Shown: piece by piece, positions 6,587-53,807 of the stretch
Numbering within the stretch: position 1 is the first letter of the stretch
How the letters are laid out: each line of letters starts with the position of its first letter
Source: a bacterium
GTDB lineage: Bacteria > Krumholzibacteriota > Krumholzibacteriia > LZORAL124-64-63
Assembly: GCA_024231905.1 (NCBI GenBank)
Contig: JAAEQC010000102.1
Span: 80,033 to 144,032, forward strand
Reading direction: 5' to 3'
DNA: 64,000 nt
The notes under the pieces: model-generated
Told to the model about the DNA's origin: nothing
What the model saw: only the letters and a program-made list of their open reading frames with translations
The model's database searches: none
Program-made: the position numbers and the translations under genes

Positions 6587-6608
6587 CCGATCCGACCGCA
6601 GGACAGAC

Positions 6609-6642
6609 GAGGCGCCCGGTTCGCGAGAGCCGGGCGCCTTGG
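6609..6642 (+). terminator. Hairpin terminator downstream of pckG
   Basis: ggcgcccgg-ttcgcgagag-ccgggcgcc followed by ttgg. Confidence 0.4.
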
Positions 6643-6804
6643 CGTATTCGGGAACCGTCACGGCCGCCCCGGTGAACGACAGCCGGACAATCATGCTCCT
6701 GGATCGAGCCCCCCAATCTGTGGTATAGATTGTCGAGAACGGTACGGCAACGGGTGGGCGCGGGTATCGCGTGCACCGACCACGCCTCCGGTCCGAGGTG
6801 TAAG

Positions 6805-9729: not shown

Positions 9730-9780
9730 GGCGGGCGTACCTGCGCAGTACGACGGCCCGTCCCCACATGGGGCGGGCCG

Positions 9781-31200: not shown

Positions 31201-33021
31201 GGCAGCGGGACGGCCCTGGTAGGTGGCGATGGAAGGGTCGCCCAGCAGGTTGTAGATGTTCCAGTAGTACTCCTCGTTGCTCGAGGCGGCCTCCGAGACA
31301 CTCAGGTTGCCGCGGAAGACCACGGCGCCGTTGGTGACGTACCACATGGTGGGGTCGGCCACTTCGTTGGCCCCCTCGTGGAAGAGGGCGTCGTACACAC
31401 CGCTGCCGGTCTCCGCGTAGGTCATGCCGTCGCGGATCGACGCGCCGGGGAGCGCGCCCACCGACCACCACACATCCTCGTCCCAGAGTGTGTTGTTGGA
31501 ACCGCCGATGTAGCCGATGGCGCCCTTGTTCGCGGCGCGCAGGAAGGTCTCGCCGAAGCACTCGGCGGCGTCGTAGGTGGCGGACTGGCAGCAGTTGCCG
31601 ATGGCCAGGAAGTACTTGCCGTCGTTGGTCAGGCCGTTGACGTCGCTCTGCGTCATTGTCGGGTCGGCCCAGCTCGTGACGCTGCCGTGGGCGGTGTAGT
31701 TGACGAAGCCGACGCCGTTCGAACAGTCGGCGATGATGGCCGCCTCGCTGCTGCCGCTCGCTGGGTAGTAGTAGGTGTTGGCGGTGATGCCGTGCGCCGG
31801 GTTGTAGTAGTAGTCCTGGCCGTAACGGATGGTGCCGTTGCCGTGGGTGGGACCGAACGTGCCGTCGACGCCGGCGATCAGGGTCACGTTCTCCATGTAG
31901 GACGGGTCGGGCATGCTGAAGCTGTCGTACATCAGGGTCTTGTCGATGATCCCCTGCAGCATGGCCGTGTCGGTAGCAGAAAGGCGGCCGTAGTACATCT
32001 CGGGGAACAGGTCACCGGTGGTCTCGCAGTAGGGACGGTCGGATGCCCCGTCGGACGTGGTCCAGGTGGGGCACTGGTCGACGTCACCCACGAAGAGCAC
32101 GAAGCTGGGCGCCGGATCCTCGGGGGTCGCTGCGTTGTAGAGATCGTGCAGGTAGGTCTGGATGGAGGCCGTCGTGGAGCCCACCTCAGGCGAGCCGATC
32201 ACACCGGTGATCACGGTGAAGCCGCGCTCGGTCTTCCAGGCGATGAAGTCGTCGAGCTGGGCCTGGAACCCGGACGGCGTGACGATGACCATCTTGACCG
32301 GCTGCCGCACGAGATCCGCCTTGAGCGCCGGGATGTGCACGCCGTCGATCATCCCGTAGACCGAGGCGAAGAACGGGCTCCGGGTGGCGGCCTGCAGATG
32401 TTCGGTCTCCGCCCAGCCCTGGTCGAAGACCACCTCCAGGTCGAAGCTCTCGACGATCTCCAGCTCGCCGCTCTGCGGCAGGTACCGTACCGGGGCGATC
32501 TCCAGGCGCGCCAGGTCCGCGGCGCGCATGCGGCCGAGGTATTCAACGATGACCAGCTCGCGCTCCACGCGCGCCTGGGCGTAGGCGGCGGTGTCGTAGG
32601 CGAAGGGTACGTCCTCGGGCTTCTGGCTCTTGCTCAGCGAGGGCTGGTGCGGGAAGAGCGGGTTGGTGAGGCCGTGATCGGCGAGGCGCACCGTGCGGGT
32701 CCGCAGGTTCGTGATCGTGATGCCGGCCTTGCCGCCGGCGGGCAGCGCGATGAGGCGATTCATCTGCGGCAACTCGGGCGCGCCCTCGGTCATGGAGCCG
32801 TGGAACCCGGGAATGATCAACCGGGTGAATTCGCCTCCCCGGGTATCGACGGTCAGGGCTTCGAGCCGGCCGACCTCCACGCGGTAGGTCAGCGCATCGC
32901 TCTTCTGCTCGAGCAGCGTCAGTTGCGGCTGACCTCCCTCGAGCGTGAGCGTGGTGGCGGCCATGGCGCTCGCCGCGGTGATGAGGATCAAAACGGAGGT
33001 CGTCAGCATACTCAGGCGCAT
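28273..33021 (-). CDS. Giant secreted C25-family (gingipain-like) cysteine peptidase (about 1582 aa) with P-domain and T9SS C-terminal sorting domain
   Basis: Signal peptide. C25 catalytic-domain pattern (YTAHGSVTSW His region; LAIGNCCQSATYD Cys region). FQGDLTVTLTSPDK (proprotein-convertase P-domain-like). The last ~80 aa (…NFPNPFNPATTIRFDIPRDSQVSVRIYDVAGRLVREL…RKMTLVK) match the Por/T9SS type-A CTD. Start ATG at 33021 after GAAGGGA. Confidence 0.8.
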   Translation of the reverse strand: MRLSMLTTSVLILITAASAMAATTLTLEGGQPQLTLLEQKSDALTYRVEVGRLEALTVDTRGGEFTRLIIPGFHGSMTEGAPELPQMNRLIALPAGGKAGITITNLRTRTVRLADHGLTNPLFPHQPSLSKSQKPEDVPFAYDTAAYAQARVERELVIVEYLGRMRAADLARLEIAPVRYLPQSGELEIVESFDLEVVFDQGWAETEHLQAATRSPFFASVYGMIDGVHIPALKADLVRQPVKMVIVTPSGFQAQLDDFIAWKTERGFTVITGVIGSPEVGSTTASIQTYLHDLYNAATPEDPAPSFVLFVGDVDQCPTWTTSDGASDRPYCETTGDLFPEMYYGRLSATDTAMLQGIIDKTLMYDSFSMPDPSYMENVTLIAGVDGTFGPTHGNGTIRYGQDYYYNPAHGITANTYYYPASGSSEAAIIADCSNGVGFVNYTAHGSVTSWADPTMTQSDVNGLTNDGKYFLAIGNCCQSATYDAAECFGETFLRAANKGAIGYIGGSNNTLWDEDVWWSVGALPGASIRDGMTYAETGSGVYDALFHEGANEVADPTMWYVTNGAVVFRGNLSVSEAASSNEEYYWNIYNLLGDPSIATYQGRPAANEMTYPETVFVGSTSMAVTGQWGTYVGCTQDGVLVGTGLIGQDGTGEIVFESILTPGVPLKMVAMVSSREPVIAELNVIVPAVVTIDPTVIDAGVETGITVTVMAEDGVTPKPGVDIWAEGLDYATTPIATDAGGVAVITVNYPYGPSLDIVGRDPADTYRLFTETIAVNALPLGNPDLAVTTDIGLNDMFPLNLPGTLHASCDQAGSTLYARMPDGSLHSVVGDQLTVTAAGPGQVTSMIALAGHDIHSEVFDVIEAYGTVAGKVTSGGTPVAGVVVNLVKDDVVFSVVTDAQGDYSGPEDVLVADYTLEADRFGYLHLEQVVLVNYGANTFDLALDPAPAGVLQGQAYDSVTMEPLTATVRVFRSDTGELYDEVTCGADGLYTTGDLPYFTYDVVVRAWHHVPANEPVVVDGPTVARDWALAPTAGDMLVIDDSVAAAAEPKFTEKGELLAEGYQPDGAKSVAELVADLEALGYGVTVVDAGAVDPATFWNYDLVVLGCGNNSTTLANTALRDGLVIFVQAGGHILLEGGELGYDQQSSGAFATDVLHTTDWNHDLSGDISIGVTSHYVATHPNNLANSTITGGGTAYADNDAMAPLPDAEMVASWTSYPSDASVIAYDPNPAPEGGQVVYFCFNYAVAGTERADLLENAVTWLLTPEAGDCTVSGTVTLHGQADHSGITVRALPNGPSATTGTDGTYLLDGLYAGPYTIVAEKEEWSVGTVPVEPTSGQHLTGIDMTLVPTVVSDFWDKPDLPINDNQTAVATVDVAVGPALTISGIEVFLDISHTFQGDLTVTLTSPDKASVILHNRTGSSTDNIYGWYPGELTPAESLDALIGLGLDGTWTLTVADGAGGDTGTFDEWCLRFTYGSGGISGVGDQGAPLAFRAYQNFPNPFNPATTIRFDIPRDSQVSVRIYDVAGRLVRELLNEDLPAATHTVMWDGSDSSGRRMASGIYYCRVAADDHIVTRKMTLVK

Positions 33022-33446
33022 GGTCGGGGTCCCTTCGTTCGGCATATCGGATGATCCGATTCGGCGGTCTGTGGAAGCGAAGAGATTGTGCGCCGCGAAT
33101 CGCGAGGCATCATATCACGGTTGGGTATTCCGGATCGAAGCCCGTCCTGCGCGCTCCGGCGTTACGAAACGTTCTCCGATCGGGTGGTTTCGAGACTTCG
33201 GTGGTGAACTTATTGGTTGTCATTGAACTAGACAAGACCAGTCCTGGATTGTGTGACGATTCGCGGAGAGGGGTGATCTCTGAAGTCGAAAGGGAGGCTC
33301 GCCGTGCCCGGAAAGGCCGGCCGACTCGACTCGTCAATGGCGGTCCGGATTCGGTCCGAGGGGCGGATTTTCCATCGTACCGATAGGTGTTGGGTGCTTC
33401 CTGGTACCTGCAGAGCGTTGCTCCGGAACGCGGTGAAGGCGAAGGA

Positions 33447-33496: not shown

Positions 33497-35293
33497 CTAC
33501 CCCGCCAGCAATCCACCCCTCCTGTAGATCTCCAACTGCACCTTGCTCGCCGGCGTGATCGTCGTCCCGCCGCCGTCCCAATGCACCTTGCCGGTCTCCA
33601 GGTCGAGTTCGATCTCCTGACCGTTCTCCAGTTCCGCTGCCAGCAGATCACCTGCGAGCACAGGCAGCCCCGCGTTGATGGCGTTGCGCTCGTAGATGGC
33701 GCCGTAGCTGCGGGCTACCAGGGCGGTCACGCCCAGGCTGGAGAAGCAGTCCACGGCCTGTTGCCGCGAGGATCCGCAACCGAAGTTGCTGCCGGTGACG
33801 ACCAAGTCGCCGGGCTGGACCTTGGCCGGGAAGTCCTCCCAGCCGGGCAGATTGCCGAAGGCGTGCTGGCCCATCTCGGCTGGGTCGGTGATGGCCAGGT
33901 GGCGGTTGTGGAAAATCATGTCCGTGTCGATGTTCTCCTCGTTCACCAGCCAGACACGGCCCTTGAGTACGGTGGGCTTGTCACCTGCCGCTGCGGCTGT
34001 GGGTGCCGCCGTGTCCACCGTGGCGGTCGGCGCGGTCTTGGCCACCGGCTCGGGAATATCGTCTGCCCGGGCCAGGACACCGCAGAGCGCCGTGGCCGCG
34101 CAGGTGGCCGGGCTGGCCAGGTAGACCTCGCCCTTGCCCTGCTTGCCCGCGAAGTTGCGATTGCCGCTGGAGACGGTCACCTCGCCGGGACCGTTCTGGC
34201 CGATCTGTCCGGCCGCGCAGCCGCCGCAGCCCGCGTTGCCGATCAGCGCGCCCGCGTCGATGAGCGTCTGCACCAGCCCCTCGGCCAGGGCCGCTTCCCA
34301 CACCTTCCGCGTGGAGGGGACGATCTTCAGGACCACGCCCGGGGCCACGCGCTTGCCCGCCAGGATGCCGGCGGCGGTGCGCAGGTCTTCCAGGCGACCG
34401 TTGGTGCAGCTGCCGATGAAGACCGAGTCCACGGATCGGCCGGCCACTTCGGAAACCGGGACCACGTCCTCGGGATGTCCGGGCCGGGCTACCATGGGCT
34501 CCAGGCCGTCGATGTCGATCTCGATGGTTTCCACGTAGGCCGCGTCCAGGTCGGCGGCGATGGGGGCGAAGTCCTGGCCGCCGGCCCGGCGACAGAATTC
34601 CAGCACCTTCTCGTTGGGCGTGAACAGCATGATGATGGCGCCCATTTCCGTGCCCATGCTGGCAATGGTCACGCGGTCGGGTACGTCCAGGTCGTCTACC
34701 ACGTCGCCGTAGATCTCGGCGGCGCAGCCCAACAGGCCGCTGGCGCCGAGCTGGCTGGCCATGGCCAGGACGATGTCCTTGGCCGTAGCCGTCGGCGACG
34801 GCTTGCCCGTCAGGATGACCTTCTTGGAGGGCGGGACCTTGAACCACACCTTGCCGTGGGCCCAGGCGGCGGCGATGTCCTGGTCGCCCATGCCCTGGCC
34901 GAAGGCACCCACGGCACCCATGATGTTGGCATGGCTGTCGGTGGAGACGAAGGTGCTGCCCGGGCCTACGAGCCCGTCCTCGATGGCGATGTGGGTGCCG
35001 ATGCCCTGGTCGATGTCACGCAGGGCGACGCCGGTCTCGCGGGCGAAAGTCCGGCAGATCTGCTGGTTCGCCGCGTAGCCCTGGTCGCTGCCGCCCGGGT
35101 TGCAGTCGAAGGTGAATACGGTCCGCGCCGGATCGGCCACGGGCAGGCCCGCCTTGCGCAGGTTCTGGACCACGTTGGCGCCGCCGAAGTCACGGGCGGC
35201 GCGCACGTCGATGGCCACGTCGACGATCTCGCCGGGAACGGCGGGTTGGTCGCTGTGCTGGCCGATGATCTTCTCGATGAGGGTCTGTCCCAC
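33497..35293 (-). CDS. leuCD: Fused 3-isopropylmalate dehydratase large+small subunit (aconitase-family LeuC-LeuD fusion)
   Basis: LeuC blocks (GSCTNGR, GCGGCAAGQ..) joined by a Pro/Ala/Thr linker to a LeuD-like swivel domain (GSNFGCGSSRQ). GTG start after GAGGAGGA. Confidence 0.8.
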   Translation of the reverse strand: MGQTLIEKIIGQHSDQPAVPGEIVDVAIDVRAARDFGGANVVQNLRKAGLPVADPARTVFTFDCNPGGSDQGYAANQQICRTFARETGVALRDIDQGIGTHIAIEDGLVGPGSTFVSTDSHANIMGAVGAFGQGMGDQDIAAAWAHGKVWFKVPPSKKVILTGKPSPTATAKDIVLAMASQLGASGLLGCAAEIYGDVVDDLDVPDRVTIASMGTEMGAIIMLFTPNEKVLEFCRRAGGQDFAPIAADLDAAYVETIEIDIDGLEPMVARPGHPEDVVPVSEVAGRSVDSVFIGSCTNGRLEDLRTAAGILAGKRVAPGVVLKIVPSTRKVWEAALAEGLVQTLIDAGALIGNAGCGGCAAGQIGQNGPGEVTVSSGNRNFAGKQGKGEVYLASPATCAATALCGVLARADDIPEPVAKTAPTATVDTAAPTAAAAGDKPTVLKGRVWLVNEENIDTDMIFHNRHLAITDPAEMGQHAFGNLPGWEDFPAKVQPGDLVVTGSNFGCGSSRQQAVDCFSSLGVTALVARSYGAIYERNAINAGLPVLAGDLLAAELENGQEIELDLETGKVHWDGGGTTITPASKVQLEIYRRGGLLAG

Positions 35294-35294
35294 G

Positions 35295-36101
35295 TCAATC
35301 CTCCTCGGGCTGGGTGGGTGCTTCGAGCACCGGTTCACGGCCTTCCCGCCAGGCTCGCAGGCCCTCTGCGGTCTCCAGGGAGGACCAGCACTGCTGCTGG
35401 GTTTCCCACTCGTAGGCCAACATGTTGGTCATGTCGAACTGCTGATTCTGCTGCACGCCGAGCTTGGTCAGGCGCACGGCGGGCTGGGGGAGGGAGCGCA
35501 GGCGGTCGACGACCGTGTCGAGTTCTTCCTCGTACATGTCCTCGTCCAGGAGCCGGTCCACCAGGCCCAGTTGCCAGGCTTCGGCCGCTCCCACCGTGCG
35601 GCCGGACCATAGGAATTCCAGGGCGCGTCCCTGGCCCAGGAGGCCGGGCAGGGTGTGCAGCAATCCCCAGCCGGGGATCAGGCCCGCCTGCATGCTCGCG
35701 GCGGTGAAGCTGGCGGACTTGGCGGCCAGGTGCACGTCGGCGGCCAGGTAGAAGCCCAGCCCCGAGTCGCGGACATCGCCCCGGGTGGCAGCCACCACAG
35801 GTTTGGGGCATTCGCGGATGACGGTGATGATGCGGCCGCTGATCTCGTCGTCGGCGGCCAGGGTATCGAAACCGCCACCTTGGGGCTGGGCGTCGGCCAG
35901 CCCGTCCAGGTGGTGGTGCAGTTCGAAGCTGTGGTCGCCGTCGGTGAGAAGGACCACGCGCACGGCGTTATCCTCCTGTAGGCGGAGCATGAGGTCGACG
36001 AACTCGTCGCACAACTCGCCCAGGTCCGGGGCGCCGGGGCCGATCAGGCGCAGGCGCGCCCTTCCGTCGGCGATCTCACAGTCGAAGTTCCGGTACTCCA
36101 T
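35295..36101 (-). CDS. Enoyl-CoA hydratase/isomerase (crotonase) family protein
   Basis: Crotonase-fold oxyanion region (VVAATRGDVRDSGLGFYLAADVHLA...LIPGWG). RBS GGAGGGA. Start overlaps leuCD. Confidence 0.7.
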   Translation of the reverse strand: MEYRNFDCEIADGRARLRLIGPGAPDLGELCDEFVDLMLRLQEDNAVRVVLLTDGDHSFELHHHLDGLADAQPQGGGFDTLAADDEISGRIITVIRECPKPVVAATRGDVRDSGLGFYLAADVHLAAKSASFTAASMQAGLIPGWGLLHTLPGLLGQGRALEFLWSGRTVGAAEAWQLGLVDRLLDEDMYEEELDTVVDRLRSLPQPAVRLTKLGVQQNQQFDMTNMLAYEWETQQQCWSSLETAEGLRAWREGREPVLEAPTQPEED

Positions 36102-36265
36102 GGACGGTCCCTCCGGGGCCGGGGTCGTGTGCTGTGCCATACGCCCAAAATACGCGCGGAAGCGTCCTTGTCCAATGCTCCCGTGGACACTCGCCGTCCC
36201 GTGGGATAGGTTCCGATGAACCCCTGCGCCGCGCCGCTCCGTGCGGCGGGAAAGGACACCCCGAC

Positions 36266-37177
36266 TTGCGCGTCTTTCTGACCGGAGCCACGGGCCTGGT
36301 GGGTCGGCATTTGGCAGCCCGTCTGGTGGAGTTGGGCCGCGAGGTGGTGTGCGTGAGCCGCGATCCGGGCGCCGCCCGCGCGGTCTTGCCCGAGGGCGTG
36401 GAAATCGTCGGCGCCGATCCGGTCCTGCCCGGCTCCTGGCAGGATCGCCTGGCCGGCTGCGACGCTGTGGTGAACCTGGCGGGGGAGTCCGTGGCCGAGG
36501 GCCGGTGGTCCCGGGCCAAGAAACGCCGTCTGCGCCGGTCCCGCCTGCGCACCACCGAGCACGTGGCCCGGGCCATGGCCGGGGCGGACCGCCCCATGAC
36601 CCTGATCAACGCCTCGGCCACGGGTTACTACGGCGACGCCGGTGACAGGGCCCTGGCCGAGGACGCCCAGCCGGGCCAGGACTTCCTGGCCCGCCTGGCT
36701 GTGGAATGGGAGCACACGGCCCTGGAGGCCGAGCGCGAAGGCGTGCGGATCGTACTCCTGCGCATCGGCGTGGTCCTGGCCCGCGAGGGGGGCGCCCTGC
36801 CGGCCCTGCTGAAGCCCTTCCGCTCCGGTTTCGGCGGCTCGCTGGGCAACGGTCGCCAGTACTTTCCCTGGATCCACATCGAGGACCTGGTGCGGGTCAT
36901 CCTTTTTGCCCTGGATCGCGACGATCTGGCCGGCCCGGTGAACGCCGTGGTACCCGCGCCGCCCACCCAGGGAGAATTCGCCCGGGCCCTGGCCGCGGCG
37001 GTGGACAAACCGGCCCGCTGGCCGGCGCCGGGTTTCGTGCTGCGTCTGTTGCTGGGGGAGAAGGCGGCCATGCTGCTGGCCAGCCAGCGAGCTGTGCCCG
37101 CGGCGCTCAGGGCGCTGGAATTCAAGTTCAGCTACCAGGAATTGGACGCGGCCCTGGCCGACCTGATCGAGCCCTGA
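36266..37177 (+). CDS. TIGR01777 (YfcH-like) NAD-dependent epimerase/dehydratase family protein
   Basis: VFLTGATGLVGRHL Rossmann motif and a C-terminal DUF1731-like region. TTG start after GGAAAGGA is assumed. Confidence 0.65.
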   Translation: MRVFLTGATGLVGRHLAARLVELGREVVCVSRDPGAARAVLPEGVEIVGADPVLPGSWQDRLAGCDAVVNLAGESVAEGRWSRAKKRRLRRSRLRTTEHVARAMAGADRPMTLINASATGYYGDAGDRALAEDAQPGQDFLARLAVEWEHTALEAEREGVRIVLLRIGVVLAREGGALPALLKPFRSGFGGSLGNGRQYFPWIHIEDLVRVILFALDRDDLAGPVNAVVPAPPTQGEFARALAAAVDKPARWPAPGFVLRLLLGEKAAMLLASQRAVPAALRALEFKFSYQELDAALADLIEP

Positions 37178-37183
37178 CCCCGT

Positions 37184-38368
37184 TCAACCCACCACGAAGG
37201 CGTCGGCCACCGTGTCGCCGTTGGCGAAGCGGTCGAGCGACAGGCTCTCGATGATGTCGTCCCGTTCGCCGGTGACCACATGCTTCGCCATGCGCTTGCC
37301 CGTCATGGGACCGAGCATGAAACCGTGGCCGCTGAACCCGCAGATATGGAAGTAACCCTCGAGCCCCGGCACGCCGCCCAGGATGGGCCGGTGGTCCGGG
37401 GTCACGTCGTACATGCCCGCCCACTGGCGCATGAGGCGCACGCCGCCGGCCTTGGGATAGTAGGCCAGCAGGGCCTTGGCGAACCGCACGGCGAAGCGCA
37501 GCTGGCTGCGGGTGTCGAACTGTTCGGGGGCGGTCCAGTGGGGCTCGGCCGGGTCGCCGATGCCGCCGACGATTTCCCCGCGCATGCTCTGGCTGAAGTA
37601 GATGCCGTTGCTGATGGAGATGACCATGGGCCCCAGGAAGGGCTTGAGCGACTCGGAGACCATGATCTCGTGGCGTTCCTGCCGGTTGGGCAATTCGATC
37701 CCGACCTTGGCCGCCAGCGTGCGGGCCCAGGGGCCGGCGCAGTTCACCACCAGGGGCGTGGCGATGGTGCCGCGGTCGGTGACCACGGCGCGCACGCGGC
37801 CGTCATCGCACTCGATATCCTCGACGGCGGTGCGGATGTGGATGGCGATGTTCCGCCGGTGGCAGGCCCGGGCGTAGCCCCACACCACGGCGAAGGGGTA
37901 GGCCGTGCCGTCGCGGGGACAAAAGGTGGCGCCCTTGATGGCGGACACGTCCAGGTCCGGGACGATGCGGCGGCAGTCCTCGGGCTGGAGGAATTCGGTC
38001 GGCACGTCGCAGCGGTTCTGCAGGGTCACGGCCTCGCGCATGGACGTCAGGTGGGACTCGTCCTCGGTGACCATGAGGTAGCCGCCCTGGCGGAAGAAGA
38101 CCTGGTAGCCCAGTTCGGCCGACATGTTCTCGTACATGCGGACCGATTCCTGGGCCAGCCGGATGTTCTCCTCGGTGGTCCACTGCTGGCGGATGCCGCC
38201 GCCGCAGCGGCCGGTGCTGCCGGCGCCGATGTAGTTCTTCTCCAGGACGACGATGTTCTTCACGCCCTGCTTGGACAGCTCGTAGGCGGTGGTCAGGCCG
38301 TTGATGCCGCCGCCGACGACGACCGCGTCTGCCGTGGCGGGAACGGGACCCGTGGACATGGGGATCAT
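37184..38368 (-). CDS. FAD-dependent oxidase beta subunit (DadA/SoxB/HcnC/OoxB-like)
   Basis: N-terminal VVVGGGINGLTTAYELSK dinucleotide fold. 394 aa. RBS GGAGGAG. Confidence 0.8.
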   Translation of the reverse strand: MIPMSTGPVPATADAVVVGGGINGLTTAYELSKQGVKNIVVLEKNYIGAGSTGRCGGGIRQQWTTEENIRLAQESVRMYENMSAELGYQVFFRQGGYLMVTEDESHLTSMREAVTLQNRCDVPTEFLQPEDCRRIVPDLDVSAIKGATFCPRDGTAYPFAVVWGYARACHRRNIAIHIRTAVEDIECDDGRVRAVVTDRGTIATPLVVNCAGPWARTLAAKVGIELPNRQERHEIMVSESLKPFLGPMVISISNGIYFSQSMRGEIVGGIGDPAEPHWTAPEQFDTRSQLRFAVRFAKALLAYYPKAGGVRLMRQWAGMYDVTPDHRPILGGVPGLEGYFHICGFSGHGFMLGPMTGKRMAKHVVTGERDDIIESLSLDRFANGDTVADAFVVG

Positions 38369-38670
38369 GGCGTCTCCTCCGGGTCCGCGGCCGGGTCGGG
38401 CACCTGGAGGGTGGCCAACTGGGAGAAGGTGAGCGGCTCGGATGGGGGCCGGATCGTGGTCAACCTGATATCGCCGGGTTCCAGTTCGCGCAGGCGGGCC
38501 AGTTCGCCGGTGGCCTCGCACAGGCAGCCCTTGCCCTGGCAGAAGCCCGTGCCCACGCCGGTGTACCGCTTGAGGGACTCCAACTCCGTGAAACCCTCGC
38601 GGAAGGCCGCGGTGAACTCGTCTACGGTCACGTCCTCGCAGCGACAGAGGAAGATCTTGGGCTTGCTCAT
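38365..38670 (-). CDS. Small BFD-like [2Fe-2S]-binding subunit (101 aa)
   Basis: IFLCRCEDV...GFCQGKGCLC cysteine pattern. Start and stop overlap both neighbouring genes. Confidence 0.65.
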   Translation of the reverse strand: MSKPKIFLCRCEDVTVDEFTAAFREGFTELESLKRYTGVGTGFCQGKGCLCEATGELARLRELEPGDIRLTTIRPPSEPLTFSQLATLQVPDPAADPEETP

Positions 38671-40049
38671 GACGCCTCCCCGGCGCCGGCCAGCACCGTC
38701 TCCGGTGTCTCGCCGGCGGCCTCGCCGACGAACGTCACCTCGGGACCGTTCGGCACCGTCGTCGACCAGCCGGAACCGGTGCAACCGCGGGGTACGAAGC
38801 CGCCTTGTTCGGGCGCCAGATGCAGGTCCACACCCAGCTGGTAAGGGATGTCGTAGATCGGCTTCGCCCGGCGGCAGACCACCACCAGATCCGCGTCCAG
38901 GGTCAGACGGCCGCCGCCGCCGGGACCGGGGCCGGGGACGAATTCGGCCCGCAGGCCGCTGCCGTCGGCAGCGGTGTGGGCGCGGTCCAGCACCAGGCCC
39001 GTGTGCAGGGGCCAGCGCCGGGCCACCGCCGTGGCCAGGTCCGTGCCGTTGTCGTCGCTTTCCAGGAGGATGGACGGGTGTGCGCCGCGGGTTTCCAGCA
39101 ACGCCGCGGCCAACCAAAGATCCTGGCCGCCGCCCACCAGCAGGATCGTGCGCCCGGTCACGTCCAGACCGTCGCGCACCAGGAGCCGCAGCAGGGCGCG
39201 GGTTCCCAGCACGCCGGGGACGTCGTTGCCCGGGAAGAGCCCGGGGGCGTCCAGGGCGCCGGCCGCCCACACCAGCCGGTCACAGGCGAGGGTGGCGAGC
39301 TCGGCACCGTGGCGCAGGACCAAGCCGCCCGGATGGTAGCCGGCCACCACCCGCACGCCGGTCCGCAGGTCCACATCCGCGGCGGCCACCCCCTCGGCCA
39401 GGTGGTTCAGGCCGGCGCGGGCCGAGGTCAAACCGGCGAAACCGTCGAGGCAGCCCGCGGCCGCGGCCTCGTCCAGGGCCGCCAGGCGCAGTCCGCCGGG
39501 AGCGTCGTTCTCGTCCACCAGGACCACCGGACCGTCGGACGTCAGCGCCGCGGACAGCCCCGCGGGCCCGGCGCCCACCACCACTGTGGGGATACGGCCC
39601 AGATCCGTCGCCGGTTCTGCCTCCGCCTCGGCCCGTTCGGGCAGGCGGCCCACACCGGTCAGGGGACGGATGGCCGACAGAAAGACTCGGCTCAGGATCG
39701 CCGGCTTGGTGAACCACTTGTAATAGAAGCCCACGGGGACCAGGTCCCCGCCCACCGCCAGCATCTTCTGCATGGGGGCGCCATAGAAAGCTCCAGCGTC
39801 CTGGCGCTCGACCACCATGCCGTCCCGCAGGGGCGTTTCGCACACGCGCACGTTGGGCACGCCGTCCACGCGCATGAGGCAGGCGGTGCACTGGCCGCGG
39901 GCGCAGGTCACGCCGCGGGGGCGGCCGTACTTGGGACTGTGGGAGAGGTGGCGGATTCCGGCTTCCCAGAGGGCGGTCGCGATGCTGGTGCCCGTGCGGC
40001 AGATCAGGTCGCGTCCCTCGAAGCGGATGGTCGCCTTGTCACCGGCCAA
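38667..40049 (-). CDS. FAD/NAD(P)-binding oxidoreductase alpha subunit with N-terminal [2Fe-2S] ferredoxin-like domain (HcnB/OoxA/SoxA-N-like)
   Basis: N-terminal CARGQCTACLMRV...VCETP (2Fe-2S). TVVVGAGPAGLSAAL Rossmann. TTG start after GGAAAGGA. Confidence 0.75.
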   Translation of the reverse strand: MAGDKATIRFEGRDLICRTGTSIATALWEAGIRHLSHSPKYGRPRGVTCARGQCTACLMRVDGVPNVRVCETPLRDGMVVERQDAGAFYGAPMQKMLAVGGDLVPVGFYYKWFTKPAILSRVFLSAIRPLTGVGRLPERAEAEAEPATDLGRIPTVVVGAGPAGLSAALTSDGPVVLVDENDAPGGLRLAALDEAAAAGCLDGFAGLTSARAGLNHLAEGVAAADVDLRTGVRVVAGYHPGGLVLRHGAELATLACDRLVWAAGALDAPGLFPGNDVPGVLGTRALLRLLVRDGLDVTGRTILLVGGGQDLWLAAALLETRGAHPSILLESDDNGTDLATAVARRWPLHTGLVLDRAHTAADGSGLRAEFVPGPGPGGGGRLTLDADLVVVCRRAKPIYDIPYQLGVDLHLAPEQGGFVPRGCTGSGWSTTVPNGPEVTFVGEAAGETPETVLAGAGEAS

Positions 40050-40300
40050 GCTGGATCCTTTCCGGGAGCCGCGGCGGGCAGGCGCGGCGCCGCACTTGCG
40101 GCGCGGGCGATCCCGCCGGGGGTGGAACTCCGAAAATAGGACGCGCCCCCGGGCGCGGCAAGGACGCGATGCCCGGCAGTAGACCGTGCTTTCCTCCTGG
40201 CGCGTGGAGCATATATTTGATGGAGTCGAAACCCTTTAGGAGTACAGCACTCCTCTTACGGAGGCGTGCAATCCGGCCAACGGCCGCGACGAGGTGGATC

Positions 40301-41671
40301 ATGGCGGACAAGAATTTTGCCGATGTGCGCGAGGTCATCGAGAGTGAAAGCATCGAGTTCATCGACCTGAAGATGCTCGACCTGGCTGGCCGGCTGCACC
40401 ATATCTCCTATCCCGTGGAGCGTTTTACCGAGGAATCCTGCAAGGACGGCATCGGCTTCGACGGGTCGAGCTACGGTTTCCTCAAGGTCGAGAACAGCGA
40501 CATGGTCCTGGTGCCCGACCTGGCGACCCAAGCGCGGGACCCCTTCCGGCGCCGGCCCACCCTGTCCATGTTCGCCGAGGCGCGCCTGACCGACGCCGAC
40601 CGCACGCCCTTCGACCAGGACGCCCGCGGCCTGGCCCGCCGAGCCGAACAGGCTTTGGCCGACGCCGGTGTGGCCGACAAGAGCATGTGGGGACCGGAGT
40701 ACGAATTCCACATCTTCGAGGAGGCCGAGTTCCTCACCGAGAACAACGACTCGGCCTTCGGTGTGCGCAGCGGCGAGATCTTCTACAGCAACGCCTACCA
40801 TGCCTGCAATCCCTTCGACCGCTACGACGACTTCCGGGACGAGGCCTGCGCGGTCATGAAGGACTTCGGCATCCCGGTCCGCTACCACCACCACGAGGTG
40901 GGGGCCCAGGGCCAGCAGGAGATCGAGGGCTGGTTCCATGACCTGGTCACCACCGGCGACCACGCCGTCCTGACCAAGTACATCCTGTTGAACCTGGCCG
41001 AGGAGCGGGACCTGAAGCTCACCTTCATGCCCAAGCCCCTGCACGGCAACGCCGGCAGCGGCTGGCATCTGCACCAGTTCCTGACCAAGCAGGGCCACAA
41101 CGTCTTCCACGAGGACGGCGGCTATGCCGAACTCTCGCAGACGGCCCTCCACTACATCGGCGGCATCCTGCGCCACGCCGACGCCCTGTGCGCCCTGACC
41201 AACCCCAGCACCAACAGCTTCAAGCGTCTGGTGCCCGGCTTCGAGGCGCCCACCGCCCGCACCTTCGGCCGTTCGAACCGGGGCGCTGCCATCCGTGTCC
41301 CCAGCTACGTGACCGACCCCGAGGAGCGGCGCATTGAGTACCGTCCCCCGGATCTGACAGCCAACCCGTACCTCTGCGCCTCGGCCATCCTCATGGCCGG
41401 GCTCGACGGCATCATCAACCGCACCGATCCGGGCGATGCGGGCTGCGCTCCGGCGGACGCCCCGAGCGACGGCAGCCGCCACGAGGACTTCCTGCCGCGT
41501 TCCCTGGACGATGCCCTGGACGCTCTCGAGGACGACCACCAGTTCCTGTTGCGCGGCGACGTCTTCCCCGAGTCGCTCATCCGGCGCTGGGTTGAGATCA
41601 AGCGGGCGGAGATTGCTGCCATCAACCAGCGTCCGCACCCCTTCGAGTACACCATGTACTTCGACTTCTAG
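40301..41671 (+). CDS. glnA: Glutamine synthetase family protein (type I-like)
   Basis: GFDGSS, KPLHGNAGSGWHLHQ, NPSTNSFKRLVPGFEAP and ANPYL motifs. 456 aa. No NLYDLP adenylylation motif seen. Confidence 0.85.
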   Translation: MADKNFADVREVIESESIEFIDLKMLDLAGRLHHISYPVERFTEESCKDGIGFDGSSYGFLKVENSDMVLVPDLATQARDPFRRRPTLSMFAEARLTDADRTPFDQDARGLARRAEQALADAGVADKSMWGPEYEFHIFEEAEFLTENNDSAFGVRSGEIFYSNAYHACNPFDRYDDFRDEACAVMKDFGIPVRYHHHEVGAQGQQEIEGWFHDLVTTGDHAVLTKYILLNLAEERDLKLTFMPKPLHGNAGSGWHLHQFLTKQGHNVFHEDGGYAELSQTALHYIGGILRHADALCALTNPSTNSFKRLVPGFEAPTARTFGRSNRGAAIRVPSYVTDPEERRIEYRPPDLTANPYLCASAILMAGLDGIINRTDPGDAGCAPADAPSDGSRHEDFLPRSLDDALDALEDDHQFLLRGDVFPESLIRRWVEIKRAEIAAINQRPHPFEYTMYFDF

Positions 41672-41688: not shown

Positions 41689-41722
41689 GGGAGGGACCGC
41701 CGCCGGGCGGTCCCTCTTTTCA
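41689..41722 (+). terminator. Rho-independent terminator after glnA
   Basis: gggagggaccgc-cgccgg-gcggtccctc followed by TTTTCATT. Confidence 0.55.
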
Positions 41723-41741
41723 TTCCGCCGAGGAGCGAGCC

Positions 41742-42134
41742 ATGATCGAGATCAGTCTGCGCACGGGCGGTCGTACGGATTTCGTGGACGTGACCGCCGA
41801 GGTCCGCCGTGCCGCCACCGAACTGGGGATCACCGACGGCGCCCTGGTCGTCTTCAACCCCCACACAACCGCCGGTGTGACGGTGAACGAGGGCGCCGAC
41901 CCGGACGTGGTCCGCGACAAGGCCGTGGCCCTGGACAAACTCGTACCCTGGGAGGACGGCTACCGCCACGCCGAAGGCAACAGCGCCGCCCACATCAAGG
42001 CCAGCCTCTACGGCTCGTCGGTGACGCTCCTGGTGGCGGATGGAGAACTGCGCCTGGGCACCTGGCAGACCGTGTGGTTCGCCGAGTTCGACGGGCCGCG
42101 CACCCGGCGCCTGTGGGTGTCGAAGGCGGGCTAG
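41742..42134 (+). CDS. YjbQ/UPF0047 family protein, copy 2
   Basis: 130 aa. NPHTTAGVTVNE and LRLGTWQTV blocks, paralogous to the gene at 9858. RBS AGGAG. Confidence 0.75.
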   Translation: MIEISLRTGGRTDFVDVTAEVRRAATELGITDGALVVFNPHTTAGVTVNEGADPDVVRDKAVALDKLVPWEDGYRHAEGNSAAHIKASLYGSSVTLLVADGELRLGTWQTVWFAEFDGPRTRRLWVSKAG

Positions 42135-43156
42135 GGGCGGACCGGAAAGATACCCGACAGCTGATCGAGGGTTGTCTTGGCCGTCAAGGTGACGCGCCCT
42201 ACCGCGCAGGATGTGTCCGCGGCCGTGAAGCGGCTGGGCCGCAGACTGACGGTGCCACGGAAGCCCAGATCCCGGGCCAGGCTGTCCAGGTCGGCGGTGG
42301 CGAAGCCGTAGGGCCAGGCCAACCAGCGGGGGGACCTGCCCACGTGCCGGGCGATCTCGAAGCGGCTGGCGGCCAGGTCCACCAGGACCGGTTGCCACGG
42401 CCCCGACGGCGGCAGGGGCGTGCCTTCGCCCAGTGCCGCCCGGTTGGCGGCGGCCACTTCGGCGGGAATGGCCCCGGGGTGCCAGAAGACCGGCTCGTGA
42501 TCCCCGGTGGTGCGCACCTTGAAGTGGAGCGACCGGGTGTGGGACTCCACGAGTACGTGACCCGAGGCGGCCATCTCCGCCAGCTCCGCCCAGCTGCACA
42601 CGTCCAGATCGCTCCAGGCGCGCCCCGCTTCCCCGGTGGGGACGAAGAGATGAGCCCGCACGCCGTACTCCTGGAGCAGGGGCCAGGCCAGCTCGTACAC
42701 GCTGCGGTCGGCGTCGTCGATGGTGAGGATCACCGCTTTGGTGGGCAAGGGCTTATTGGCGGCATTGAGGTCAGCAACTTCATCAAGCGTAACGACTTCT
42801 ATCCCGGAATTGCGAAAATACTCGAGGTGTCGCGCTAGCTCCGCGCGGGGTGTCGTCCAGAACTCGCGGTCCCCCAGGGCGGGCAGTCCGAAGAGGAGGG
42901 AGCCCACGACCCGGGCCAGGTAGTCCGGGTCGAAGTCGGCCCGGAAGTAGTGGTAGCAGAGGACGGGAACGCCGGGGGTGTCGTCCACGAATTCGAAGCT
43001 GGCCAGGTGGGGCGGATCCAGCTGATGCAGGGAGACGGGCTCCTCGAGGGCTTCTTCGCCGCCGCCGCAGCCGGTGGCGAACAGGAGGCAGGCCAGCACC
43101 GCGGCGGTCGGGACGCACGGGTGGTGGCGGGTTCGGTGGTCCATGACCGCGTCCAT
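42131..43156 (-). CDS. Polysaccharide deacetylase (NodB-homology) lipoprotein
   Basis: Lipoprotein signal (LLFATGC). AVILTIDDADRSVYELAWPLLQEYGVRAHLFVPTG NodB motif 1-2 region. Start overlaps the upstream stop. Confidence 0.7.
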   Translation of the reverse strand: MDAVMDHRTRHHPCVPTAAVLACLLFATGCGGGEEALEEPVSLHQLDPPHLASFEFVDDTPGVPVLCYHYFRADFDPDYLARVVGSLLFGLPALGDREFWTTPRAELARHLEYFRNSGIEVVTLDEVADLNAANKPLPTKAVILTIDDADRSVYELAWPLLQEYGVRAHLFVPTGEAGRAWSDLDVCSWAELAEMAASGHVLVESHTRSLHFKVRTTGDHEPVFWHPGAIPAEVAAANRAALGEGTPLPPSGPWQPVLVDLAASRFEIARHVGRSPRWLAWPYGFATADLDSLARDLGFRGTVSLRPSRFTAADTSCAVGRVTLTAKTTLDQLSGIFPVRP

Positions 43157-44604
43157 CAGAAGAGTGCCCGCAGGGACACGTTGGCGAAGGTCCGGCTGTA
43201 GCCGCTGGCGGTGGCGAAACTGCTCTTGGCGTAGCCGGCCTCCAGGGCCGCAAGCCAGCCGCTGGCGAAGCGCCAGCCCACCCGGCCGGAGGCGCTGCCC
43301 ACTGAGACCGCGTCGGCGCCGGCCTCGCGCTCGGTGCCCAGGCTGCCGCCCAGGCGCCAGGTCGTGCGTCGCGAGCGGGTGGCCAGGGTCAATTCGAAAC
43401 TGCCACTGCGTACCCAGTCCGGCGCCCAGTAGCCGCCGGGGTAGGGGTCGCGGTAATCCATGTACGACACCACCGGTCCAGCCGTCACCTGGATGCGGCC
43501 CTCCCGGCGCCACTTGAGACTGGCACTGCCGCGGCGGCGCAGGTTGCCGTCGCTGTAGTCAGCCAGGCTGCCCTGGGCGTCGCAGGCCCAGTGGCGGGCC
43601 AGGCGCCACTCGGCCGACAGGCTCCCCTGCTCCAGGTGGAGACGGCGGCCGAAGGCGGTGTAGGTCTCCACCGCCTGGCTGGCCGCGCCCAGATCCGTCC
43701 GCCAGCGCGGGGCCGGCAACCAGGTGAGCCAGGCGTCGCCGCCGGTGCGGGTCCAGTCCAGTTCGCCGTTGCCAGCGGCCAAAGGACCGTCGCTGCGGAA
43801 GTGGTCCACCCAGCCGTAGGCGTGGAGAGACCAGTTGCGGGCCAGGGCCGTTGCCAGCCCGGCGCCCAGGCGCGGCGCCGTGACGTGGGGCCGGCCGGGC
43901 TGGGAGTAGCGGGCCACCGAGGGCATGATCTGCAGTAGCTTGTTGCCGGCGACGGTCACGGCGCCGTGGGCGGAGACCCGGTAGCGGTCCAGGTCGTCCG
44001 AGTCCCAGGCCGCGTCCACCCGCAGGTCCAGGTGGGGCGTGTAGCCGTCGAGGGTGGTCAGGAGGAAGGCGCCCGCTTCCCGGCCCGGCGCCGCGTCGCC
44101 GTCGAATTCCGTCTCCACCCGGCGCAGCACGCCGTAGCCCCCGTGGAGGCGGTTGTCCCAGACCAGGGTGCGGCCCAGGCCCACCCGGGCGTCGCCGTCG
44201 GCGGAGTCCTCGTCCACGAGGGAGCGGTACAGGGCCACGGCCGCCGGTTGCCGTCCACTCCAGCTGAGAGCCAGGGCCAAGCCCGAACGCACCCGGCGGT
44301 CAGCCTGACCCGGATGGCGGGCCAGGTGGCGGCGGAAGTAAAAGACGGCCCGTTCGGCGTCCTCCCGCCACAGTTTCTGGTAGGCGATCTCCTGGGCCAC
44401 TTCGGGCACCAGACTCGCGTCCTGGGCCAAGGCCTCCAGGTAGTCGGCCACGGCCTCGTGGTGGCGGTCGGCGCCGGCGGCGGTCCGGGCGGCCGCCACC
44501 TTGGCCCGGGCCGCCTCGGGATCGATGACCGTCGAGTCGGGCGCCGCGGCGTGGGCGCAGGCGGTCCAGATCAACAGCACGGACAGGGTGCGCAGCAGGG
44601 TCAT
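43156..44604 (-). CDS. PgaA-like exopolysaccharide export outer-membrane protein (TPR-like N-terminal region plus beta-barrel)
   Basis: Signal peptide. An N-terminal helical repeat region, then alternating beta-strand pattern ending in …SLRALF (C-terminal Phe). Position in operon with GT2 and deacetylase. RBS AGGGAG. Confidence 0.6.
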   Translation of the reverse strand: MTLLRTLSVLLIWTACAHAAAPDSTVIDPEAARAKVAAARTAAGADRHHEAVADYLEALAQDASLVPEVAQEIAYQKLWREDAERAVFYFRRHLARHPGQADRRVRSGLALALSWSGRQPAAVALYRSLVDEDSADGDARVGLGRTLVWDNRLHGGYGVLRRVETEFDGDAAPGREAGAFLLTTLDGYTPHLDLRVDAAWDSDDLDRYRVSAHGAVTVAGNKLLQIMPSVARYSQPGRPHVTAPRLGAGLATALARNWSLHAYGWVDHFRSDGPLAAGNGELDWTRTGGDAWLTWLPAPRWRTDLGAASQAVETYTAFGRRLHLEQGSLSAEWRLARHWACDAQGSLADYSDGNLRRRGSASLKWRREGRIQVTAGPVVSYMDYRDPYPGGYWAPDWVRSGSFELTLATRSRRTTWRLGGSLGTEREAGADAVSVGSASGRVGWRFASGWLAALEAGYAKSSFATASGYSRTFANVSLRALF

Positions 44605-44606
44605 GG

Positions 44607-45875
44607 CTACTCCCTGACCGGTTTCCAGAGCGTGTATTTCCGCTGCTGGCGGTTGACGTTCAGGCCCTGGGGCGCCGAGATGACGGTGATGGCCGCCAGG
44701 AGGATCCAGTAGACCAGCGGGTAGAAGACAGCCACCACGAAGTACCGGGGCAGCTTCCGGTCGTAGTTCCGGTCCAGGAAGACACCGGTCACCAGTTGGA
44801 CCAGGCACACGGTGGCGATGAGCATGCCCCAGAAGTTGGGGATGGGTGAGGCCCCGATGGGCGGGAAGCCCAGGGCGTAGCTCACCAGCCAGATGAACGA
44901 CAGGATGACGTAGGCGTAGGCCCAGCCCACCGACAGGCACGACTCCACCAGCACCGGCCAGAAGCGGCGGTGGCGCCAGGCCAACAGGGAGCGGCCGTGC
45001 CGGACCAGGACCTGGCTCAGTCCCACGGCCCAGCGCCGGCGCTGGCGCCACAGACCGTGCAGGGACTGGGGGACCCGCATCCACATGACCGCGTTGGCCT
45101 CGTAGCGCACATCCCAGTGGCGTAGTTGCAGGCGCCAAGTCAGGTCGATGTCCTCGGTGGCCATTTCCGGGCTGTACAGTCCCACGTCGTAAAGGGCGCT
45201 GCGGCGGAAGATCCCCACCACGCCGCTCATGGTCATGATGCGTCCCCATACCCTCTGGGCACGCCGCATGAGCGAGATGATCGAGGCGAACTCGATGGCC
45301 TGCAGCTTGGCCAGGAAGCTGTCCCGGTTCACCACGCGCGGGTTGCCGGTCACGGCGGCGCAGCGCGGCGAGTCGAAGTGGGGGACGAGCCAGCGCAGGA
45401 TGTCCGGGGCGGGTTCGGCGTCGGCGTCCATGACGAAGACCAGCTCCCCGCGGGTCAGGGGGATGGCGTCGTTCAGGGCCATGGCCTTGCCCTCGTTCAC
45501 CCGCTTGCGCAGCACCCTGACCCGGGCGTCCACCAGGTAGGGCCGGATGCGGTCGAAGGTGGCGTCGGTGGAGGAGTCGTCCACCACCAGCACCTCGAAC
45601 TCCGGGTAGTCCACGGCCAGGACCGCGGCCAGGGTGTCGCCCAGGTTCCCTTCCTCGTTGAAGGCGGGGATGACGAAGGACACGAAGGGCGTCTTGTCCG
45701 TGGCGTAGAAGGCCTGTTTCTCCTGGGGGTCCGAGGACTCGCGCCGCACGTAGTAGATGAGGGCCGTGAAGATCCACACGCAGCTGGTGACCAGGGGGTA
45801 CCAGGCGAAGTAGACGAGCATGGCCGTGTACCACCAGGTGTGCTGCAGGCGCACGACGAGACTCAGGAGGTCCAT
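44607..45875 (-). CDS. Family-2 glycosyltransferase, poly-beta-1,6-GlcNAc synthase-like (PgaC/IcaA-like)
   Basis: Processive GT2 pattern: VVDDSSTD, DADAEP, GNPRVVNR, QRRRWAVG (QxxRW) and flanking TM helices. RBS GGGAGGAG. Confidence 0.8.
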   Translation of the reverse strand: MDLLSLVVRLQHTWWYTAMLVYFAWYPLVTSCVWIFTALIYYVRRESSDPQEKQAFYATDKTPFVSFVIPAFNEEGNLGDTLAAVLAVDYPEFEVLVVDDSSTDATFDRIRPYLVDARVRVLRKRVNEGKAMALNDAIPLTRGELVFVMDADAEPAPDILRWLVPHFDSPRCAAVTGNPRVVNRDSFLAKLQAIEFASIISLMRRAQRVWGRIMTMSGVVGIFRRSALYDVGLYSPEMATEDIDLTWRLQLRHWDVRYEANAVMWMRVPQSLHGLWRQRRRWAVGLSQVLVRHGRSLLAWRHRRFWPVLVESCLSVGWAYAYVILSFIWLVSYALGFPPIGASPIPNFWGMLIATVCLVQLVTGVFLDRNYDRKLPRYFVVAVFYPLVYWILLAAITVISAPQGLNVNRQQRKYTLWKPVRE

Positions 45876-46240
45876 CAGGACTCCTCCCCGTCGACGATCC
45901 GGTAGACCTTGTGGCCGGCGGCGTCGCCCTCGATGATCACGGTGGTGGCGGCCTGGAGTTCCGCGCGGGACGGCGCCATCAGCGACCGGCCCAGGTGATC
46001 GTGGGTGAAGGGTTCGGGGGGCGCGGCGAAGCCCTGGCGCCGGCCCAGGCGGGCCGAGAGCCGCAGGTTGTGGCTCACCCACAGCAGGGTGATCACCAGT
46101 CCCGCCAGGACGATGCCCGCCAGCACCAGCAGGGCCACGCCGCTGTCGGCGGTGATCTGCCGCTGGGCGACCACGTACCAGTAGTAGCCCAGGAGGCACC
46201 ACAGGAGGATGGAGATGAAGATGTGCCACGCGTGGCGCAT
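45875..46240 (-). CDS. Small two-TM membrane protein (PgaD/IcaD-like accessory candidate)
   Basis: 121 aa with two hydrophobic helices. Its stop overlaps the GT2 start (ATGA). Confidence 0.45.
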   Translation of the reverse strand: MRHAWHIFISILLWCLLGYYWYVVAQRQITADSGVALLVLAGIVLAGLVITLLWVSHNLRLSARLGRRQGFAAPPEPFTHDHLGRSLMAPSRAELQAATTVIIEGDAAGHKVYRIVDGEES

Positions 46241-53796: not shown

Positions 53797-53807
53797 CGCT
53801 CAGCCCC

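Follow-up and report, generated by a model that had tools for sequence, protein, structure and literature searches.

Does a glutamine synthetase (GS)-family gene that is divergently transcribed from a three-gene flavin/iron-sulphur (Fe-S) oxidase operon belong with that operon to one gamma-glutamyl-amine pathway, or do two independent units simply stand back-to-back? The question is raised by positions 37184-41671 of a 64,000-nucleotide stretch of contig JAAEQC010000102.1 from a bacterium of the class Krumholzibacteriia; this whole 64-kb stretch is hereafter called the window. The original prediction for this locus, made from the DNA sequence, was of a catabolic module for an amine or imino acid of unstated identity, in which the GS-family protein would ligate gamma-glutamyl amines and work together with the oxidase. 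Based on our analysis, the locus probably consists of an ordinary glnA placed back-to-back with an L-proline-dehydrogenase-family complex, with no sign of a joint gamma-glutamyl-amine pathway.

The GC content of the window, about 68%, gives rise to many spurious open reading frames (ORFs), and genes were chosen by a filter on GC content at third codon positions (GC3) together with their translations. The four genes originally placed in this segment, namely glnA and, on the opposite strand, those of an alpha subunit, a small subunit and a beta subunit (Table 1), were confirmed by their ORFs, their Pfam domains, a GC3 signature of real genes and their conservation in more than 50 related genomes. 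The minus-strand genes are transcribed in the order alpha, small protein, beta. The TTG start codon of alpha has GGAAAGGA upstream, and start and stop codons overlap as ATGA at both the alpha/small and the small/beta junctions, an arrangement typical of translationally coupled subunits.

The divergent gene encodes a protein that passes the NCBIfam equivalog model for GlnA (TIGR00653; 442.1 bits, cutoff 429.15), whereas the models for gamma-glutamylputrescine synthetase (NF045547; 209.7 bits, cutoff 650) and type III GS (TIGR03105; 219.6 bits, cutoff 469.6) fail. Compared with solved structures, it scored about 330-352 bits against type I-beta (GSI-beta) enzymes of M. tuberculosis, Synechocystis and Salmonella, about 215-225 bits against GSI-alpha enzymes, 137 bits against type III and 128 bits against the glutamate-methylamine ligase 9QUR, the last to be set against 352 bits for GlnA structures. 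Additionally, we aligned its residues with those of E. coli GlnA, E. coli PuuA, three Krumholzibacteriia orthologues and the GS-like protein of a Latescibacterota locus, L058, using E. coli mature numbering. The metal ligands Glu129, Glu131, Glu212, Glu220, His269 and Glu357 and the substrate- and phosphate-binding Arg321, Arg339, Arg344 and Arg359 are all kept in the window protein and in the three orthologues. Loss of ammonium-site residues is the expected signature of ligases that take amines instead of ammonium. In the same alignment, the ammonium-site and flap residues Asp50, Ser53, Tyr179 and Glu327 are all present in the window protein and are all missing from PuuA and the L058 protein; the proposed role as a gamma-glutamyl-amine ligase is thus contradicted by the very residues expected to reveal it.

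The apparent lack of an adenylylation loop, which had been noticed originally, was confirmed. Ser stands at the position of Tyr397 in the window protein, and the three orthologues in the alignment have Gly, Ser or a gap there. Of the GSI-beta insertion, 17 amino acids corresponding to E. coli residues 162-178 are deleted; Asn264 aligns with Ala. The protein therefore departs from the GSI-beta hallmarks (an insertion of about 25 amino acids and the adenylylation site Tyr397), though GSI-beta structures score highest. By its sequence, it is a genuine type I glutamate-ammonia ligase, predicted to be free of adenylylation control. It is also the most conserved protein of the neighbourhood, with 64-87% identity among orthologues, and no second GS-family gene was found in the window. 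The clade to which it belongs (456-458 amino acids), nearest to GSI-beta yet without its hallmarks, may constitute a distinct GSI subgroup in phyla related to the Fibrobacterota-Chlorobiota-Bacteroidota (FCB) group.

Regarding the oxidase, the best solved match of the beta subunit is the beta chain of Pyrococcus horikoshii L-proline dehydrogenase, PH1364 (1Y56_B; E 1e-69, 238 bits, against 142 bits for SoxB). Both its GxGxxG motif and its R-x-W motif (RQW), which is the flavin mononucleotide (FMN) motif, were found in 45/45 orthologues. The alpha subunit is composed of an N-terminal [2Fe-2S] ferredoxin-like domain followed by a flavin adenine dinucleotide (FAD)/NAD(P) domain with two dinucleotide folds, for which the Pyr_redox_2 match is weak (23.9 bits, under the cutoff of 26.1). 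The sequence C49-x4-C54-x2-C57-x12-C70 is present in 45 of 46 alpha orthologues, and GxGxxG in all 46. The top three Foldseek matches in the PDB for the AlphaFold model of alpha (pLDDT 75.7) were two SoxA structures (1VRQ_A and 2GAG_A) and PH1363 (1Y56_A), with dihydrolipoamide dehydrogenases ranking after them. The small protein carries the motif C9-x-C11-x32-C44-x4-C49, conserved in 50/50 orthologues and with the x32 spacing of PH1363, and aligns to residues 488-565 of SoxA as well. Because alpha matches the N-terminal part of PH1363 (residues 13-98 and 110-257 of 1Y56_A) and the small protein matches residues 412-482 of the same chain, the two together are, as judged from these alignments, a PH1363-like alpha subunit split into two genes.

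The motifs described for the heteromeric DAO-family dehydrogenases are GxGxxG, R-x-W (FMN), C-x4-C-x2-C-x11-12-C and C-x-C...C-x4-C, the last of which lies at the alpha C-terminus in characterised relatives (Watanabe et al., PMC4575208). All of them were found in the window proteins and are conserved among orthologues, and the operon is accordingly assignable, by homology, to the family of heteromeric flavin/Fe-S dehydrogenases that comprises the proline dehydrogenases (PDH), HcnABC, the opine dehydrogenases and D-hydroxyproline dehydrogenase. The gene order had been read originally as B-A-C-like. Since the N-terminus of alpha has the Cys motif of the HcnA/gamma type and the 101-amino-acid protein has the alpha C-terminal motif of the relatives, the order corresponds instead to hcnA-hcnB-hcnC, in which A and B have been joined and the C-terminal domain of B has become a gene of its own.

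The beta and alpha proteins also match the sarcosine oxidase models. Beta matches TIGR01373, and on the soxA model TIGR01372 alpha covers positions 18-445 and the small protein positions 512-599; the scores are far under the family cutoffs (240 vs 529 and 112 vs 1164). Pfam and NCBIfam scans of the window revealed neither a GCV_T folate domain in alpha nor SoxD or SoxG genes. Identity of the complex with SoxBDAG or N-methylglutamate dehydrogenase was rejected on these grounds and on the position of beta outside the SoxB clade.

This position was obtained from neighbour-joining trees with 200 bootstraps, in which the references included PH1364, SoxB, PuuB and DadA. The Krumholzibacteriia beta clade joins PH1364 at 82% bootstrap and, when further relatives are added, joins PH1364 together with the clade of five-gene systems described below at 72%. 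The SoxB-type proteins form a separate clade (100% bootstrap), and beta also stands apart from PuuB and DadA. Of the proteins named originally for comparison with this subunit, beta groups with the proline dehydrogenases and not with SoxB or DadA. The corresponding identities are 35% to PH1364, 29% to SoxB (2GAG), 22% to PuuB and 20% to DadA. Within this family assignment, we regard L-proline or L-pipecolate as the likeliest substrate, at roughly even odds; an alpha4beta4 L-proline dehydrogenase has been reported to accept L-pipecolate too (PMC4141209). Literature searches on proline or GS metabolism in Krumholzibacteria gave nothing relevant.

To locate relatives in other lineages, a HMMER search with beta was run against 1.8 billion cluster representatives, and it returned 1298 clusters at E <= 1e-30. 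With identities of 40-47%, many of these clusters are nearer to the window protein than PH1364 is. The three-gene operon, with alpha (Fer2_4 plus FAD domain), A3/BFD and beta genes, is also present in a Myxococcota metagenome-assembled genome (MAG; L076) and in a Thermoplasmata archaeon (L078). In a Nannocystaceae MAG (L077), A3/BFD and beta genes were found, and the upstream genes have no recorded Pfam domain. A five-gene form, with Fer2_4, Pyr_redox, Fer4 (about 165 amino acids), A3/BFD (92-105 amino acids) and beta genes, occurs in WOR-3, Bacillota and Atribacteria (L075, L079 and L080; about positions 4800-8150 of each locus), in the same alpha-gamma-delta-beta order as pdhA-F-X-B of Thermococcus PDH2 (PMC4364671). 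In proteins of about 500 amino acids (P0242, P0244, P0250, P0256, P0318 and P0334), the A3/BFD domain forms a single chain with beta, at the N-terminal end, and these fusions independently support a joint action of the small protein and beta. As to genomic context, no GS gene was found within 7 kb of the dehydrogenase in any of the six relatives outside the lineage (L075-L080). The Myxococcota relatives sit near D-serine-dehydratase-like and YggS-like genes; the L079 cluster has genes for a GntR regulator and an aldehyde:ferredoxin oxidoreductase on its flanks, and that of L080 adjoins a Liv-type amino-acid ABC transporter.

Two further candidates were discarded. The Latescibacterota locus L058 (8394-15527) was considered as an independent pairing of GS and oxidase, and it proved to be a full soxBDAG-like cluster (1083-amino-acid alpha) with a GmaS/PuuA-like ligase, which is a known system. 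Its GS-like gene keeps an NLYEVP motif resembling that around Tyr397, and the cluster is probably an N-methylglutamate/GmaS-type module. The Nocardioides loci L059-L063 were considered as the same architecture; they lack an A3/BFD gene, and in addition to beta they encode a short alpha and a second DAO protein that resembles PuuB.

We analysed the conservation of the GS/alpha adjacency by tblastn mapping of 63 GTDB loci, the close relatives all being Candidatus Krumholzibacteriia/Krumholzibacteriota MAGs. The adjacency is confined to Krumholzibacteriia, within a larger syntenic block with the order PgaB-like / YjbQ / GS <> alpha / small / beta / YfcH-like / enoyl-CoA hydratase / fused aconitase-family protein. 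The GS-alpha junction is tight in 49 of the 50 loci whose sequence extends far enough upstream of alpha (49/52 when L020 and L023 are counted). At the other junctions, the numbers of tight over informative loci are 38/45 for YjbQ-GS, 29/44 for beta-YfcH, 32/38 for YfcH-enoyl-CoA hydratase and 19/35 for enoyl-CoA hydratase-aconitase. Three Krumholzibacteriia loci (L012, L020 and L023) keep the operon without GS, and other genes occupy the place in L020 and L023. In L012, an ORF resembling a beta-class carbonic anhydrase (9094-9765; CSDSRV motif) lies in the glnA slot between yjbQ and alpha. The operon still adjoins GS orthologues at 65% identity, whereas those at 58-59%, just outside the lineage, adjoin unrelated genes with no dehydrogenase nearby.

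The spacer between alpha and glnA is 251 bp long in the window and 146-332 bp among orthologues. Alignment of 49 intergenic regions revealed conserved blocks that correspond to two promoter-like pairs and two ribosome-binding sites (RBSs); the pair directed towards alpha has the form TTGCCG-N17-TATTTT. No sigma-54/NtrC-type site, shared operator or palindrome was found in these 49 regions. An Rfam scan of the whole window gave no matches; the glnA leader thus contains no glutamine riboswitch, nor any other RNA of a known family. glnA looks like its own transcription unit, because a GC-rich hairpin followed by a T-run stands between it and yjbQ (41739-42134). We consider it likely that glnA and the alpha/small/beta operon are two separate, back-to-back transcription units, regulated independently.

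Several observations concern the promoters themselves. TAnnTTTG-like elements, CATATATTTG towards glnA and TATTTTCG towards alpha, are conserved in the 49 orthologous spacers (window positions 40131-40220), which suggests that Krumholzibacteriia may use Bacteroidota-style promoters; a sigma-70 consensus scan gave no promoter in the 40131-40220 region. The glnA leader contains, at 40233-40266, an insertion of about 34 nucleotides with an inverted repeat (GCCTCCGTAAGAGGAG...) that is missing from most orthologous spacers.

Table 1. Position and characteristics of the genes and putative regulatory elements at the glnA-dehydrogenase locus (window coordinates)
Feature	Position	Strand or direction	Characteristics
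Beta subunit, predicted FAD-dependent amine/imino-acid dehydrogenase	37184..38368	-	394 aa; Pfam DAO, E 1e-74; operon gene 3
Small Cys4 subunit	38365..38670	-	101 aa; Pfam SO_alpha_A3, 6e-17; Fer2_BFD, 2e-9
Alpha subunit	38667..40049	-	460 aa; TTG start; Fer2_4, 2e-26, plus weak Pyr_redox_2; operon gene 1
Putative divergent promoter region	40050..40300	.	k-mer and alignment conservation in 49 intergenic regions
Alpha RBS	40056-40063	towards alpha	conserved block
TATTTT	within 40131-40140	towards alpha operon	conserved block
TTGCCG	within 40155-40164	towards alpha operon	conserved block
CATATATTTGA	40210-40220	towards glnA	TAnnTTTG-type element, conserved block
glnA RBS, GAGGTGG	40291-40297	towards glnA	conserved block
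glnA, type I glutamine synthetase	40301..41671	+	456 aa; Gln-synt_N, 7e-23; Gln-synt_C, 4e-101
Terminator-like hairpin and T-run	41689..41719	+	GGGAGGGACCGCCGCCGGGCGGTCCCTCTTTTC; core in terminator scan at 41699-41711

According to the arrangement that we favour, the glnA product would be a dodecamer-type GSI that ligates ammonium to glutamate, expressed with its own promoter and terminator and independently of the dehydrogenase. By analogy with the P. horikoshii enzyme PDH1, the FAD of beta would oxidise the C-N bond of a secondary amine, either converting L-proline to pyrroline-5-carboxylate (P5C) or acting on L-pipecolate. From there, electrons would flow by way of an interface FMN between alpha and beta to the alpha FAD and to the Fe-S centres that alpha and the small subunit carry, as modelled on the PDH1 structure and on PMC4575208, and NAD(P)+, ferredoxin or a quinone are the candidate final acceptors. 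The cofactor occupancy, electron acceptor and quaternary structure of the dehydrogenase are those that we infer from this analogy.

How do the other explanations compare with this one? That the GS-family protein is a PuuA/GmaS-like ligase and the oxidase acts on a gamma-glutamylated amine or on N-methylglutamate seems to us very improbable. GS-family genes do adjoin SoxB-family oxidases, as in L058; however, the window protein keeps every ammonium-site residue and behaves as GlnA towards the family models. The beta subunit has little identity to PuuB, alpha has no GCV_T domain, and SoxD and SoxG, which N-methylglutamate dehydrogenase requires, are absent; nor is there any gamma-glutamyl hydrolase, aldehyde dehydrogenase or N-methylglutamate synthase gene in the 64 kb. 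Because the synthetase behaves as GlnA and the oxidase groups with complexes of the proline-dehydrogenase type that occur in unrelated contexts, the original proposal of a common pathway is essentially overturned. The part of it that survives is the catabolic enzyme, which is of the HcnABC/opine/proline-dehydrogenase type and most likely acts on an amino or imino acid; a partnership with the synthetase is not supported. In keeping with the original doubt about a cyanide synthase, there is no positive evidence for cyanide synthesis.

A looser association, in which the two units form a nitrogen-acquisition pair, the dehydrogenase product (glutamate via P5C, or ammonium) feeds a true GS and the divergent promoters are co-regulated, is unlikely in our opinion. 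It would account for a junction that is better kept than any of YjbQ-GS, beta-YfcH and enoyl-CoA hydratase-aconitase, that stays tight while alpha identity falls to 41% and that persists at the GS divergence given above; in addition, proline oxidation yields glutamate, which is the substrate of GS (PMC4364671). Nevertheless, the promoters are separated by no conserved operator or sigma-54/NtrC-like site, the operon exists without GS in the three loci mentioned, the six relatives in other phyla all lack a GS gene nearby, and no P5C dehydrogenase gene was found in the window. The whole 15-kb block is syntenic, unrelated genes included, and much of the adjacency is therefore accounted for by common descent. 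The functional link between GS and oxidase that had been postulated is thus not borne out by the relatives on either side, that is, by dehydrogenases of other phyla or by GS orthologues just outside the lineage. A stronger version, in which glnA and the PDH-like operon of Krumholzibacteriia are a conserved, co-regulated divergent pair that ties imino- or amino-acid oxidation to glutamine synthesis, possibly with a substrate new to the family, appears slightly more doubtful still; if true, it would represent a lineage-specific route drawing nitrogen from proline or other peptide-derived amino or imino acids.

It is somewhat unlikely, in our estimation, that the complex, as a member of the same family, acts on something other than L-proline or L-pipecolate, such as glycine (as a hydrogen cyanide synthase), an opine, D-hydroxyproline, a D-amino acid or a sarcosine-like N-methyl amino acid. 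Specificity has shifted repeatedly in this family, and the Myxococcota relatives have the amino-acid-related neighbours mentioned above. Beta groups with PH1364 rather than with SoxB, and the relatives share the PDH2 operon order (PMC4364671); moreover, the locus has neither an opine transporter nor an hcn-type context, and these points weaken the alternative. The following observations weigh against the interpretation that we prefer. The identity of beta to PH1364 is just 35%, a distance equalled by plasmid-borne SoxB-like subunits (34-36%); the best plasmid matches are full SoxBDAG-type clusters (L070-L072) and not opine oxidases. The deep branches of the neighbour-joining trees are weak, and neither a P5C dehydrogenase nor a proline transporter gene adjoins the operon. 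The GS/alpha junction is the best-kept of the neighbourhood, which could reflect selection for co-regulation. Finally, OdhB2, the beta subunit of an octopine dehydrogenase, is close to the archaeal L-proline dehydrogenases and is inactive on proline (PMC4575208); therefore, the substrate of the window enzyme is not secure.

The remainder of the window is of a housekeeping character, with alaS, asnB, a phosphoenolpyruvate carboxykinase gene and genes for a NuoF-like protein and cytochromes; no P-II, amtB or glutamate synthase genes were found in the 64 kb. Syntenic with the operon across the class are a fused large-plus-small-subunit protein of the aconitase family (33497-35338, minus strand; 613 amino acids; homoaconitase/isopropylmalate-isomerase-like), an enoyl-CoA hydratase (35295-36140, minus strand) and a YfcH/DUF1731 epimerase-family protein (36134-37177, plus strand). 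A nearby 1590-amino-acid protein (28273-33045, minus strand), which has PorU-like segments and a type A sorting domain of the type IX secretion system (T9SS) at its C-terminus, fits an FCB-group organism. Beside yjbQ, a PgaB-like polysaccharide deacetylase (460 amino acids) and a PgaC-like family-2 glycosyltransferase are encoded at 42131-46229 (minus strand), suggesting a locus for an exopolysaccharide of the poly-N-acetylglucosamine type. Additionally, two adjacent multi-haem cytochrome c genes (52264-55214, minus strand), one NapC/NirT-like and the other of a multi-haem family, point to a capacity for anaerobic respiration or extracellular electron transfer.

The main value of these results is one of correct annotation, since a housekeeping glnA need not be misread as part of a new gamma-glutamyl-amine pathway. 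In this case, the check on Asp50, Ser53, Tyr179 and Glu327 drew a clean line between true GS and amine ligases, and it is applicable to other loci. The heteromeric L-proline-dehydrogenase family, labelled as archaeal, is widespread, with members in uncultured anaerobic Krumholzibacteriota, Myxococcota, WOR-3, Bacillota, Atribacteria and Thermoplasmata, and the partition of its subunits varies among three-gene forms, five-gene forms and fusions of the small subunit to beta. The enzyme family is a known one, and the partition seen in the window is uncharacterised but widespread. No long-standing question is opened or closed by this locus; a divergent pairing conserved in one class is a minor curiosity.

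Compared with known systems, the window synthetase resembles GlnA of E. coli and Salmonella and GlnA1 of M. tuberculosis in that the catalytic residues are all kept, with 40% identity to E. coli GlnA. It differs from GSI-beta in having neither the 162-178 segment nor Tyr397, so in regulation it would resemble GSI-alpha. The dehydrogenase shares with SoxBDAG and MgdABCD its matches to TIGR01373 and TIGR01372, and such systems do adjoin GS-like ligases, as in L058; by contrast, their alpha subunit is about 960 amino acids long with a C-terminal GCV_T domain and is accompanied by SoxD and SoxG, none of which the window has. At the level of architecture, HcnABC, OdhABC and LhpBEF (alpha4beta4gamma4) have in common with the window three subunits, two FAD sites, the FMN motif and the two kinds of Cys4 motif (PMC4575208). 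In those enzymes, however, it is the Fer2_4 ferredoxin that forms the small gamma subunit, and C-x-C...C-x4-C lies inside alpha, so the window partition is the reverse.

The closest counterparts are the proline dehydrogenases of the Thermococcales. PDH2 of Thermococcus profundus and T. litoralis (alpha-beta-gamma-delta, encoded by pdhA-pdhF-pdhX-pdhB; PMC4364671) has the same succession of alpha, small subunit(s) and beta, and the 101-amino-acid window protein, judged only by its position and size, is probably the equivalent of PdhX (delta); the window differs in lacking the Fer4 (gamma) subunit and in having Fer2_4 fused to alpha. PDH1 of P. horikoshii (PH1363/PH1364, alpha4beta4; PDB 1Y56) belongs to a thermococcal archaeon rather than to a mesophilic bacterium, and it differs from the window complex in its beta subunit, as the identity of 35% indicates, in an alpha subunit that the window splits into two genes (460 and 101 amino acids), and in the four [2Fe-2S] cysteines, which window alpha keeps and PH1363 lacks in the aligned segment. 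At the same time, PDH1 gives the best match among solved structures to each of the three window proteins, and it shares with them the ferredoxin-like N-terminal domain, the FAD/nucleotide domain, the Cys4 A3/BFD domain, a beta subunit of the DAO fold, and an R-x-W motif with no His for covalent attachment of FMN.

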